Origin: Candidatus Iainarchaeum sp.
GTDB taxonomy: Archaea; Iainarchaeota; Iainarchaeia; Iainarchaeales; DTGL01
Assembly: GCA_038886995.1 (NCBI GenBank)
Contig: JAWALG010000010.1
Location: forward strand, 1-27,744
Direction: 5' to 3'
DNA: 27,744 bases
The notes below the pieces were generated by a model, which saw only the letters and a list, made by a program, of their open reading frames with translations, had not been told where the DNA came from and ran no database searches. Below are positions 1,529 to 5,163 of the stretch, piece by piece (position 1 is the stretch's first letter; every line of letters begins with the position of its first letter). The position numbers and the translations under genes were made by a program.

Positions 1529-2718
1529 TTCAAGGACCTTGTGAATTCCTCAATATTGTTGAAGGCCTCTTCAAGTACATCCAAAGGCGGAAGAATAACT
1601 GTGCGGAAATGCTTTGTGCCAGGCTTTTGCCCAAAACCAGAGCCGTGAACAACACAGACACCCTTTTCGCGCAAGAGCCCTAAAGCAAACTCCTTATCAT
1701 CTTTAACAGGGAGATCTATTTTTGGGAATGCATAAAATGCGGCATTTGGCTTTTCACAGCTTATGCCATGTATTTCATTTAATCTTTTTACAGAATAATC
1801 GCGCCTTTTTTTAAGTTTTTTAATTGCATCTTTTATATGCTTTTTGCTGCCTTCAAGAGCTGGCTTTATTGCATACTGGAAAGGATGCACTGCGCAAAGC
1901 CTTGCCCTTGCTAATCTCGAAATTGCATCCATTATATCAGAATTTTGTAGCAAGAACTCGTTTGGTGCAATCCAACCCATACGAAATCCTGTAGCTAAGT
2001 AATTCTTGCTCAGGCCATTTGCTGCAATAACTGGCACATCTTTTGCAATTGAACCCATGCAATAATGTCTTTCTTTTTCGTCAAGTAGCAGTTCGTCATA
2101 TATTTCATCTGAAAATATTACAAGATTATTCTCCGCTGCAACACTTATAATCTCCTCAAGTGTTTTTTTGCTGTAGTTTGTGCCTGTGGGGTTATTCGGA
2201 TTTATCACAACTATTGCCTTTGTTTTTTCATCTATATTTTTTCTTATGCTATCAATATCTGGCTGCCAGCCATGGCTCTCATCTAAATCATAATATTTCT
2301 CCTCTACATCATAAAAGGGCAAAGCTGCAGAGTAAACCGGATAGCAAGGCCTTGGCAGAAGGATGTTTTCGCCAGGGTTTGCAATGCAGCTCATCGCAAA
2401 CCAAATGAGCTCTGAAGAACCATTGCCAAGCAAAACGTTTTCAGGCTCAACTTTCATGCCTTTTTTCTTAAAGTTCTTTGCTATTGCTTCTCTTGCCTCT
2501 TTTATGCCTTCGCTTGGCGCATAACTTTCGCCTTTTTGCTTTGAGTCAAAAACAGCTTTCCATAGATGTTCCGGTGTCCTAAAATCGTACTTTAGCGGAT
2601 CACCGATATTCAAATAAAGAACTTTTCTGCCTTGTTTTTCCAGCTTTGAGGCCTCTACTACAATATCCCTAATAGCATAAGAGACCTTTTCAGAACGCTT
2701 TGATGCCTTGAAGAACAT
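1525..2718 (-). CDS. alaA: PLP-dependent class I/II aminotransferase, alanine aminotransferase (AlaA/YfbQ-like)
   Basis: N-terminal YAIRDIV and LNIGDP..DF.TP, plus INPNNPTG, SDEIYD and the PLP lysine motif NGLSKNYLATGFRMGW. Substrate inferred from the N-terminal motifs. Confidence 0.85.
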   Translation of the reverse strand: MFFKASKRSEKVSYAIRDIVVEASKLEKQGRKVLYLNIGDPLKYDFRTPEHLWKAVFDSKQKGESYAPSEGIKEAREAIAKNFKKKGMKVEPENVLLGNGSSELIWFAMSCIANPGENILLPRPCYPVYSAALPFYDVEEKYYDLDESHGWQPDIDSIRKNIDEKTKAIVVINPNNPTGTNYSKKTLEEIISVAAENNLVIFSDEIYDELLLDEKERHYCMGSIAKDVPVIAANGLSKNYLATGFRMGWIAPNEFLLQNSDIMDAISRLARARLCAVHPFQYAIKPALEGSKKHIKDAIKKLKKRRDYSVKRLNEIHGISCEKPNAAFYAFPKIDLPVKDDKEFALGLLREKGVCVVHGSGFGQKPGTKHFRTVILPPLDVLEEAFNNIEEFTRSLK

Positions 2719-2779
2719 ATTTTGAAAGATAACAGAAAGTAATTAAAATTAATCTGGAAGGATTATTTAAGGTGCTGTT

Positions 2780-2947
2780 ATGTCAAAAACAGAAAAAACA
2801 TCTGATTATGCTGTCTTTTTTATTCCAGCAGGCCTGTTTTTGGGTTTTGCTGCAGGTTTCTTATTAAACCAGTTGCCTGCAGGCATATTTGGCGGCCTTG
2901 GCTTGGGCTTTCTCCTTTTCGCAGCAGTGAAAGTGCTTGCTAAATGA
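2780..2947 (+). CDS. Small (55 aa) two-helix glycine-rich membrane protein
   Basis: Not in ORF track. AAGGTG SD-like site precedes ATG 2780. Reads MSKTEKTSDYAVFFIPAGLFLGFAAGFLLNQLPAGIFGGLGLGFLLFAAVKVLAK* with GxxxG repeats and a basic tail. Confidence 0.75.
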   Translation: MSKTEKTSDYAVFFIPAGLFLGFAAGFLLNQLPAGIFGGLGLGFLLFAAVKVLAK

Positions 2948-2970
2948 TCAGGCCTTTAATTGCAAAAAGT

Positions 2971-3032
2971 GGCTCAGGGTTGGATTGTCTCTTCACAGCT
3001 AACGCTCTGTCGGTGTTAACCTCATCATTGCC
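2971..3032 (-). ncRNA. Archaeal box C/D 2'-O-methylation guide sRNA
   Basis: Minus strand reads GGC-A-[ATGATGA box C]-GGTTAACACCGA-[CAGA box D']-GCGTTAGCT-[GTGAAGA box C']-GACAATCCAACC-[CTGA box D]-GCC-ACTTTTT. Both guides are exactly 12 nt, with a terminal GGC/GCC stem, a downstream oligo-T run and an AT-rich TATA-like upstream region. Confidence 0.88.
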
Positions 3033-3092
3033 TAAAAAAATTACTTTATTAAATATAATAAGAATATCGTTGAGAATTAACTGTATTGTAAA

Positions 3093-4637
3093 TTATTTTT
3101 TCTTAATCCTACTGAGCAGCATTTCCTTCAATGCCTTCGCATTCTGCTCATTCAGGCCATCGATATGGCCTTCTATAATTGATTGCGGGGCAACTGTTGA
3201 GACATGCACATCCCAGAGGCCAAATATCCTATCAAATATATCTTGGTCAACAAAAACGTTTTGTATGCGCTCAAAAGGAATTGTAATTTCTTTAACATTG
3301 AAGACACCTTTGCATATCAAAAGGCAGTCTTCAGTGAAGTTGTAATAGTAGCTCCTCAAATAATAAATTTCGTGAATATATGTTGCAATTGTAAGAAATA
3401 TTAGAATAAGAAACCCGTAAAGCAATGCTTGCATAAACCATTGCGGTGCCATGATTAAGCAAATTATGCAAATCACCAGGTATGCTATGGCAAGATAACA
3501 GGTTGACTTGAGTGTCTTCTTCAATGGCTTGCTTTTTTCTAACGGGTGCTTGCTGATGAGCGTTGGAGTTATTTCTTTTGTGCTGAAGCCCACATGTTTA
3601 AAAATTATGTCACGGAGCTGCAAGGCGTGGTCTAAAAGAAGCGCTGGTATTCTATTCATAACAGCCCTTGGCTGCTCACCTTTTTCATAGGTTTCGACCG
3701 CGCCTGTTTCAACGTGTAAGTTTGCGATACCAAAAGGTCTTTCAAAGACACCAATAGAAACTACAATATCCTGAATCTTTTCATAGGGTATGCTGACTTT
3801 TTCCAGTGCAAATAACTTATACTGTATTTCAAGTCGGGTTTTCCCTAAAAAATATGTTGTGCCAAGCAAGCGGATGGTGGGGTTTATTACGAAAGGTAAA
3901 AGAATAGAAATTAGAATCATCCCTCCTAGCGTTATCCATAAAGTACTAAATTCTGGTTTAAAAAACATGGCTGCTACAACTATTAAAAATATTATGATAA
4001 AGCAAAAAATAAGTGCTGACAGAACACCTTTTCTAAGCTGAATCGGAAAAATGTTTGGTTGCATTTTTTCTGCCAATTCTAAAGATTCTGAGTGTGTCAA
4101 ATGTTCTATTTCGGGGTGTTGGCCTTTATAAGACTTTGAAAAGCGAATCCTTCTGAGAACAGTTTCCTTAATGATATCTGCTGTTTTATGATCAAAGCTG
4201 GGCAAATTGCCAGCATAAGCTGAGAGTTGGCTCATTGTTACGATCTTCAATCTTTTCAGGCCTATTATTCTTTCAATTATTCCCTGGCTTTCAACAACAT
4301 CTTGTATATCAGAGTAAAGCAGCAAAGACCTCTTTTTTGCAATTATGCCACACTGGATTACAAGGCCTTCTTCTCCGATTTCAACCCATGTGTTTTTCAA
4401 TGTTAGATAATCCAAGGCAATAACCACAGCACAAAATCCTAACCCGAATAAAACAGTTAATAATATTGATATTGCTTGGTCAACATCTGTGCTGCTTTCG
4501 TAAGAAGAGGGAACAAATATTCTGAGAATTGAAAAAAAAGAAATAAAAAATAGGATTAATATTATTATAGGAAGATTTTTTAATAGATTTAAAAGTGATG
4601 GCTGATAACGCCTTTTAGAGTTGCTATGCTCTTCCAT
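3093..4637 (-). CDS. Membrane protein with three bacterial PH (bPH_2) domains, YdbT-like
   Basis: Three repeats of (two TM helices + domain) with cores YSDIQDV..SQGIIERIIGL, YEKIQDI..SIGVFERPFGI and FERIQNV..DQDIFDRIFGL. Confidence 0.85.
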   Translation of the reverse strand: MEEHSNSKRRYQPSLLNLLKNLPIIILILFFISFFSILRIFVPSSYESSTDVDQAISILLTVLFGLGFCAVVIALDYLTLKNTWVEIGEEGLVIQCGIIAKKRSLLLYSDIQDVVESQGIIERIIGLKRLKIVTMSQLSAYAGNLPSFDHKTADIIKETVLRRIRFSKSYKGQHPEIEHLTHSESLELAEKMQPNIFPIQLRKGVLSALIFCFIIIFLIVVAAMFFKPEFSTLWITLGGMILISILLPFVINPTIRLLGTTYFLGKTRLEIQYKLFALEKVSIPYEKIQDIVVSIGVFERPFGIANLHVETGAVETYEKGEQPRAVMNRIPALLLDHALQLRDIIFKHVGFSTKEITPTLISKHPLEKSKPLKKTLKSTCYLAIAYLVICIICLIMAPQWFMQALLYGFLILIFLTIATYIHEIYYLRSYYYNFTEDCLLICKGVFNVKEITIPFERIQNVFVDQDIFDRIFGLWDVHVSTVAPQSIIEGHIDGLNEQNAKALKEMLLSRIKKK

Positions 4638-4641
4638 AAAA

Positions 4642-5139
4642 TCACTTTTTTGAGGTCTTGATTTTCTCGAGAATCATTTTTTTCATAGCTTCTCCGTTCT
4701 CAAGACTCACGCCGTCAATGTGCGCCTCTTGGCCTGATAAGTAAGTTGCAGTAGAAACATGCAAGTCCCACAAATTGAAGATTCTATCAAAGATGTCCTG
4801 GTCAATGTAAACATCCTGTATCTTTTCATAAGGTAAAACAGTTTCTCTTGGGGCAAAAACGCCCTTTTTTATTACCAAGAAATCTTCTCTGATGTCATAG
4901 TAATATTTTTCGAAATATAGGGTTTGGTACCAGAAAAGAATCAGGATAATGACAACAATAAATAGAAGACAGGCAATGGCAGTAATAATTCCAGCCTGCT
5001 CAAAGCCAGACATAAATGGTAAAATTATGGCGGCTATAGCTAAAAGCAAAACCCAGAAAATAGAGCCAGCAATAGTTTTCTTTATAATTTTCCTTCTTTC
5101 AAGCGGAAACAGCCTAATTGTTGGACCTGCCTCGGACAT
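4642..5139 (-). CDS. Membrane protein with one bacterial PH (bPH_2) domain, YdbS-like
   Basis: Two TM helices, then KKGVF...LPYEKIQDVYIDQDIFDRIFNLWDLHVSTA. ATG at 5139 follows an AGGTG SD-like site, so it is preferred over the 5154 start in the ORF track. Confidence 0.85.
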   Translation of the reverse strand: MSEAGPTIRLFPLERRKIIKKTIAGSIFWVLLLAIAAIILPFMSGFEQAGIITAIACLLFIVVIILILFWYQTLYFEKYYYDIREDFLVIKKGVFAPRETVLPYEKIQDVYIDQDIFDRIFNLWDLHVSTATYLSGQEAHIDGVSLENGEAMKKMILEKIKTSKK

Positions 5140-5163
5140 AGTAGCACCTACCAAATATTTTCT

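Follow-up and report, generated by a model that had tools for sequence, protein, structure and literature searches.

An unannotated box C/D sRNA gene conserved across the order of Candidatus Iainarchaeum, with two predicted targets in the peptidyl-transferase region of 23S rRNA

The DNA analysed here (the window) is a stretch of 27,744 nucleotides at positions 1 to 27,744 of contig JAWALG010000010.1 (C10 in the contig numbering used below) in the Candidatus Iainarchaeum sp. assembly GCA_038886995.1, a genome of 38 contigs and 866 kb (G000) with ∼40 per cent GC that is 88.6 per cent complete. On the minus strand, positions 3032–2971 read GGC-A-ATGATGA-GGTTAACACCGA-CAGA-GCGTTAGCT-GTGAAGA-GACAATCCAACC-CTGA-GCC, followed by AC and then by TTTTT. 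The initial annotation had described four boxes, two 12-nt guides, a GGC/GCC stem, a spacer hairpin, and an oligo-T tail in this stretch, and each of these is found there on the minus strand. The box C, box D, and terminal stem by which an archaeal box C/D sRNA is recognized are all present, the D′ and C′ boxes carry GA dinucleotides, and the guides are of the usual length of about 12 nt (12 and 12 nt), a spacing shared by nearly all parsed homologues. This architecture, together with the covarying homologues described below, bears out the assignment to the canonical archaeal dual-guide box C/D sRNAs. The parts are listed by their positions in the window.

2971–3032, minus strand: whole box C/D sRNA unit, stem to stem, 62 nt (read from the sequence; covariance model R1 scores 80.3 bits at 2969–3033)
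3030–3032, minus strand: 5′ strand of the terminal stem, GGC, pairing with GCC at 2971–2973
3022–3028, minus strand: box C, ATGATGA (TGATGA invariant in 23/23 sequences of alignment A1)
3010–3021, minus strand: D′ guide GGTTAACACCGA, 12 nt; complementary to the 23S A-loop through positions 3–12, A3014 (position 5) lying opposite the U2552 equivalent
3006–3009, minus strand: box D′, CAGA (GA alone invariant; relatives have CAGA, CCGA, CTGA, TTGA, or ATGA)
2997–3005, minus strand: D′–C′ spacer GCGTTAGCT, forming with flanking box nucleotides a small hairpin, A-GC GTTA GC-T (column covariation)
2990–2996, minus strand: box C′, GTGAAGA (nTGAnGA kept in most relatives)
2978–2989, minus strand: D guide GACAATCCAACC, 12 nt; positions 2–10 pair with LSU 2628–2636, and position 5 (C2982) lies opposite the G2581 equivalent
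2974–2977, minus strand: box D, CTGA (invariant, 23/23)
2971–2973, minus strand: 3′ strand of the terminal stem, GCC (stem pairing and covariation)
2964–2968, minus strand: T5 run 2 nt past the stem, a likely archaeal terminator (sequence)
3045–3061, minus strand: putative AT-rich, TATA-like promoter element TTATTATATTTAATAAA (conserved position of the upstream motif)

The unit is intergenic, as had been proposed, and lies between a 55-aa plus-strand ORF (2780–2947), which is without a Pfam match, and the stop at 3093 of a minus-strand gene for a 514-aa protein. ARAGORN found no tRNA in the window. The two adjacent minus-strand genes just upstream of the sRNA (3093–4637, 514 aa; 4642–5154, 170 aa) encode membrane proteins with bacterial PH domains (bPH_2, PF03703), three in the larger protein and one in the smaller. 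Part of the locus also recurs in a second metagenome run (X2), where a 113-nt contig is identical to window positions 2921–3033 and another contig matches 3004–3033 before continuing into unrelated sequence past the 5′ end of the sRNA; this suggests that a near-identical sRNA may occupy another genomic context in a related strain.

The boxes of such RNAs are short, and their joint occurrence was set against chance with a strict scan that called for a box C, an 11–13-nt guide, a D′ box (at most one mismatch), a 3–13-nt spacer, a C′ box (at most one mismatch), a second 11–13-nt guide, a box D, and a 3-bp terminal stem, in that order. One unit was found in the 865,833-base genome and none in each of thirty first-order Markov genomes of the same size. 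At gathering thresholds Rfam has no match in the window, and the locus does not score as a member of any curated box C/D family. In E-value mode (positions 2850–3150) there are eight sub-threshold matches, six of them to C/D families; these six span the same ∼61 nt of the minus strand, roughly 2949–3034. The best E-value, 0.0025, is that of sR1 (RF01152), which scores 20.6 bits where gathering requires 45, and snoZ152 reaches 23.1 bits against 50. Since most of these matches are to C/D families and none reaches its gathering score, the sRNA has C/D architecture and stands outside every curated family.

Conservation extends well beyond the source genome. In a BLAST search of the 96-nt region against forty relatives of the same order, full-length homologues were found in many at 73–96 per cent identity. 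Twenty-five homologous copies were parsed and twenty-three of them aligned (alignment A1), leaving out a second copy in G009 (L074) and a copy with a 92-nt unit (G023, L028). The covariance model R1 matches 123 of the 151 genomes searched in the order, including 51 of the 53 of high quality (E ≤ 0.01), and in a phylum search it matches 121 of 151, including 50 of 55 of high quality (E ≤ 0.001); in other orders of the class the phylum search gave weak matches of ∼30 bits in five genomes. Within G000 the model finds this locus alone, the next-best hit scoring 17.2 bits (E 0.16). An exact-pattern scan of species-representative genomes returned forty loci, thirty-nine of them in records titled as Candidatus Iainarchaeum, Diapherotrites, or unclassified archaeon MAGs and one on a contig labelled Falkowbacteria. 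The match in G029 (37.9 bits) was judged to be a different sRNA rather than an orthologue and was omitted from the covariation table. The alignment is invariant at TGATGA of box C, at GTTAAC and a CC in the D′ guide, at the GA of D′, and at CTGA of box D.

The structural elements covary. The terminal stem is paired throughout the twenty-three aligned sequences, two of its three pairs having undergone double changes, and the two pairs of the spacer hairpin alternate among GC (9), CG (5), AU (1), and UA (1) at columns 29/43 and among CG (10), GC (6), UA (1), and UG (1) at columns 30/42. When stem and hairpin are taken together, double changes occur in four of five pairs and 92.8 per cent of cells are paired, against 76.9 per cent in shuffled alignments (0/500 shuffles reach the observed value). 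RNAalifold also returned a weak guide–guide pairing with a total energy of −2.18 kcal/mol, which was not believed.

Signals consistent with independent transcription flank the homologues. Among the twenty-four copies with 120 nt of upstream sequence, every one has a TATA-like pentamer starting 21–30 nt upstream of the unit, whereas each of the remaining 10-nt bins as far as −120 contains one in one to four of twenty-four copies, and a run of at least four Ts falls within ∼30 nt downstream in twelve of twenty-four homologues. The flanks are otherwise unrelated, and the combination of a positioned TATA-like motif and T-runs amid unrelated flanks therefore argues for an independent gene that starts near the terminal stem. 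No RNA run is listed for the locus, and 0 contigs of one metatranscriptome from the same study fall on it, a result that is uninformative as to expression. Taken together, the locus is a genuine box C/D sRNA gene beyond chance.

Additional copies are present in some genomes. Partial copies were seen at L021, L069, and L070 (G030), L065 (G017), and L066 (G021), and R1 matches are numerous in G053 (eight) and G094 (seven). The partial copies keep the stem strand, box C, and the A-loop guide (∼23–28 nt) before running into unrelated sequence, and L026 and L028 have long hairpin insertions between D′ and C′. Such extra copies could be duplicates, copies in decay, or longer variants.

In the established model of the archaeal C/D RNP, methylation falls opposite the fifth guide nucleotide upstream of D or D′. 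Guides were accordingly scored by contiguous pairing spanning position 5 against the rRNAs of the same genome, which lie on contig C7 (LSU 1782–4751; SSU 7–1494), and against all thirty-three tRNAs found by ARAGORN; E. coli numbering was assigned by aligning the LSU pairwise to rrlH of E. coli K-12 (2904 nt). The guide complements given in the initial annotation are correct, and its proposal that they be sought in the 16S, 23S, and tRNA genes had a mixed outcome: neither complement has an exact 12-nt match in 16S or 23S rRNA, and each guide has a partial match in 23S rRNA. The D′ guide pairs best with LSU 2600–2609 through positions 3–12, in ten contiguous base pairs (nine Watson–Crick and a terminal G–U), which sets position 5 opposite LSU U2602 (U2552 in E. 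coli). For the D guide the best match is LSU 2628–2636, paired through positions 2–10 in nine contiguous base pairs (eight Watson–Crick and one internal G–U), with position 5 opposite LSU G2631, the equivalent of E. coli G2581 and 29 nt downstream of the D′ target. Both duplexes are short, and they have the roughly 9–12 bp of rRNA or tRNA complementarity, with the target at guide position 5, that is expected of this class. The complementarity alone in this one genome is not significant, as shuffled guides reach the observed best score in the stable RNAs in 81 of 1000 cases for D′ and 225 of 1000 for D, and the case for the targets rests on the position of the matches and on covariation.

U2552, in the A-loop, is ribose-methylated in all three domains and is near-universally U; G2581 we take to lie on the 3′ strand of helix 90, adjoining the peptidyl-transferase ring. 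The A-loop of G000 (LSU 2597–2611) reads GGAGGUGUUAACUC as compared with UGGCUGUUCGCCA in E. coli. The A-loop is unusual in this lineage as a whole, as seen in the 23S rRNAs of G018, G029, G041, G050, G058, and G075 (L038, L049, L162–L165) and on contig C7 of G000, and in several families the 2552 equivalent is G. Modification of the A-loop at U2552, G2553, or both is described as invariable (PMC7994747), and helices 90–93 of domain V are called a methylation hotspot in two sources (PMC4644070, PMC7994747).

Whether guides and targets have changed together could be read from the relatives. The 23S segment was obtained from 27 of 41 genomes and from four of five further genomes and then aligned, and the twenty-four genomes for which an sRNA copy had been parsed and a 23S segment was available entered the pairing table (G023 kept; G029 and L074 left out). 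D′ guide positions 3–11 are fully paired with the LSU of the same genome in twenty-three of the twenty-four, and the exception, G014, pairs at positions 2–10. The A-loop sequences and the guides that accompany them are as follows.

A-loop GGTGTTAAC, guide GTTAACACC: 18 genomes
A-loop GGGGTTAAC, guide GTTAACCCC: 2 genomes
A-loop GGGGTTTAC, guide GTAAATCCC or GTAAACCCC: 3 genomes
A-loop GGTGTTCAC, guide TTGAACACC: 1 genome

Where the 2552 equivalent itself has changed from U to G, D′ guide position 5 has made the compensating change from A to C, and at position 9 guide variants among the relatives have A or G in place of T, following the 23S A-loop. The two guide nucleotides that adjoin D′ are unpaired with the A-loop in G000, and positions 1–2 vary freely among relatives, as is expected of unpaired nucleotides. 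Matching each guide with the LSU of its own genome leaves one cell unpaired, and swapping LSUs among genomes leaves 15.7 on average (0/2000 swaps are as good); because the genomes are kin, the swap test is inflated and the independent compensatory events number a handful rather than twenty-four. The guide and the A-loop have co-evolved through at least three sequence changes, one of them at the predicted site of methylation. This amounts to a natural experiment in which the predicted modification at 2552 is maintained when the base changes. One discordant copy was seen in G009, where a second sRNA (contig C15, L074:189–247, minus strand) has C at guide position 5 and the genome's own LSU has U; it may reflect a paralogue, a strain mixture, or mis-binning.

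The D guide has a more uneven history. Positions 2–10 are fully paired in twenty-one of the twenty-four genomes, and in those position 5 is always a C–G pair. At position 10 the guide has C opposite a target G and T opposite a target A (G016, G018, and G037), and there is a G–T pair there in G013. In other genomes the D guide has been replaced by nnGATnGGCGGG (G014, G042, and G058) or mismatches its site at positions 2–3 (G041), and because it is replaced or degraded in some families, the A-loop guide is the constant part of this sRNA family.

It is consequently worth weighing an alternative in which the sRNA is genuine and methylation is directed by the D′ guide alone, at N2552, with the D guide either an orphan or an rRNA-folding chaperone that tethers helix 90/93 near the A-loop. 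In G000 the D guide forms no more than 9 bp with its target, one of them an internal G–U, three families have replaced or degraded this guide (the nnGATnGGCGGG carriers G014 and G058, and G041 with its mismatches at 2–3), and no report of a 2′-O-methyl at G2581 was found in a literature search of titles and abstract openings. The maintenance of the D pairing in 21 of 24 genomes with an unvarying C–G at position 5, and the C-to-T change at position 10 that tracks the target A in three genomes, run against this alternative, which seems unlikely without being far-fetched.

Two other target assignments fare worse. The lineage's A-loop resembles the anticodon loop of tRNA-Asn(GUU), and the D′ guide might be supposed to act there, its second-best match being to the tRNA-Asn at C4:15437 with eight contiguous Watson–Crick pairs; this pairing has a mismatch at position 4, adjoining the target nucleotide, position 5 would face U33, and the guide variants of relatives (A to C at position 5, T to A or G at position 9) follow the 23S A-loop, so that a tRNA target is very improbable. 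The initial annotation had correctly pointed to the A-loop and had assigned it to the wrong guide: it had the helix-92 G that precedes U2552 by four nucleotides methylated under the D guide, with the D′ guide addressing 16S rRNA near 1160–1170. Correct as its guide complements are, the D guide makes only scattered, non-contiguous pairs at the helix-92 site (seven Watson–Crick and two G–U, LSU 2594), the best SSU matches of the D′ guide are of 7–8 contiguous bp elsewhere, and the changes in the D′ guide track those of the 23S A-loop in relatives, all of which leaves that pair of assignments barely credible. A chance assembly of motifs in an AT-rich spacer, or a 3′ UTR or terminator belonging to the bPH-domain gene upstream, might be entertained from the shortness of the boxes and a position 60 nt downstream of a minus-strand gene, after a T7 run, and is very unlikely in view of the empty simulated genomes (0/30), conservation in 123 of 151 genomes despite unrelated flanks, the positioned TATA-like motif in 24/24 copies, and the covariation of stem and guide.

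The preferred reading is therefore of a 62-nt dual-guide box C/D sRNA gene on the minus strand, with its own promoter, that guides modification of the U2552 and G2581 equivalents, and we place its probability at somewhat under nine in ten. The protein partners that such an RNA would need, which the initial annotation had suggested looking for, are all encoded in the genome: fibrillarin (C37:5–505, an ORF cut by the contig end; 205.6 bits), Nop5 adjoining it (C37:1559–2236; 191.9 bits), and L7Ae (C6:11832–12092; 93.4 bits). Transcription, RNP assembly, and the methylations are predicted from the architecture, conservation, promoter motif, complementarity with covariation, and these protein genes. 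The C/D and C′/D′ boxes would fold into kink-turns, both bound by L7Ae, with a true hairpin, in place of a K-loop, closing the internal one, and a Nop5 dimer and two fibrillarins would complete the RNP. The D′ guide could then pair with the A-loop (helix 92) of nascent 23S rRNA, where fibrillarin would 2′-O-methylate the U2552 equivalent, and pairing of the D guide at the edge of the peptidyl-transferase ring would place the G2581 equivalent in the second active site. The predicted products are Nm2552 (Um in G000) and Gm2581; on this sequence-based account the most likely role of the sRNA is to guide sugar methylation at two positions in the catalytic center of the ribosome. Genomes otherwise known as MAGs alone thereby gain an unannotated RNA gene that is conserved across the order, and with it a specific prediction of two ribose methylations in the peptidyl-transferase region.

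Relaxed scans of G000 gave a single additional credible C/D candidate, flanked by tRNA-Met and tRNA-Glu genes at C17:9020–8966, minus strand (L166:567–621). It has a 7-bp terminal stem (GAAAACC/GGTTTTC), a box C of ATGAAGA, 12-nt guides, and a 9-nt spacer. Its D′ guide forms 11 bp with the D-arm of the neighboring tRNA-Met, with position 5 opposite C13 (24/1000 shuffles reach this). The candidate is conserved in G004 (99 per cent) and G002 (90 per cent), has a possible homologue in G029, and scores a sub-threshold 20.9 bits against Rfam sR41. A 22-nt mini unit at C14:15519–15498, minus strand (AAGATGA, 11 nt, CTGA, and five flanking complementary bases), has a spacer that makes ten contiguous Watson–Crick pairs with the anticodon-loop region of tRNA-Gly(CCC), and may be due to chance.

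A stand-alone A-loop methyltransferase was also sought. In the 88.6 per cent complete G000 no FtsJ/RrmJ match exceeds the Pfam cut-off, the best scoring 21 bits against 24.1, and the ORF that gives it was rejected as RrmJ, being an RsmB/F-type m5C methyltransferase (162 bits on PF01189). Across the order, FtsJ matches pass the Pfam cut-off in 83 of 151 genomes, nearly all of them partial at 24–35 bits, which is typical of other Rossmann-fold methyltransferases; the best, in G089 and G106, reach 78 bits over model positions 1–132.

These observations invite a broader and more doubtful interpretation. The Iainarchaeota may keep the C/D RNP machinery for a minimal repertoire of one or two guides whose core job is to replace RrmJ/FtsJ at the A-loop; that the guide follows position 2552 even when it is G would imply selection for the ribose methyl over the base, and the sRNA would be the irreducible C/D guide of a reduced genome. 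This possibility fits because RrmJ was not found in G000, one further credible C/D candidate was recovered there, and the guide tracks 2552; it is weakened because the genome is incomplete, the scans were home-made, and the order-wide FtsJ survey is ambiguous. The number of C/D guides in G000 is thus only tentatively small. If G000 does manage with one or two C/D guides and without RrmJ, the A-loop methyl would be a modification that a reduced archaeal genome cannot give up.

A search of the literature found no report of C/D sRNAs in Iainarchaeota. Guides of this kind are already predicted in other archaea, and it is their occurrence in Iainarchaeota that is newly seen: for five archaeal species, Dennis et al. 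2015 (PMC4644070) predicted that a C/D guide addresses U2552. As described there, those guides and the present one are alike in RNA class, target nucleotide, position-5 rule, and RNP proteins, and here too both guides aim at nearby sites in domain V. On the same description, the present sRNA differs from them in belonging to Iainarchaeota (DPANN), in having a guide adapted to the unusual A-loop GGUGUUAAC, and in facing a G rather than a U at the targeted nucleotide in some families. The curated Sulfolobus and Pyrococcus families sR1 (RF01152), sR3, sR14, and snoPyro_CD align with it end to end in box positions and length, whereas scores are far below gathering (20.6 versus 45 bits and lower) and the guides are unrelated. 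The last comparison is with E. coli RrmJ/FtsJ, which makes Um2552 as a stand-alone methyltransferase (cited in PMC7994747). The modified nucleotide and the chemical product, as predicted here, are the same; RrmJ is a protein-only enzyme, whereas in the system proposed for Iainarchaeota the site would be chosen by an RNA guide.
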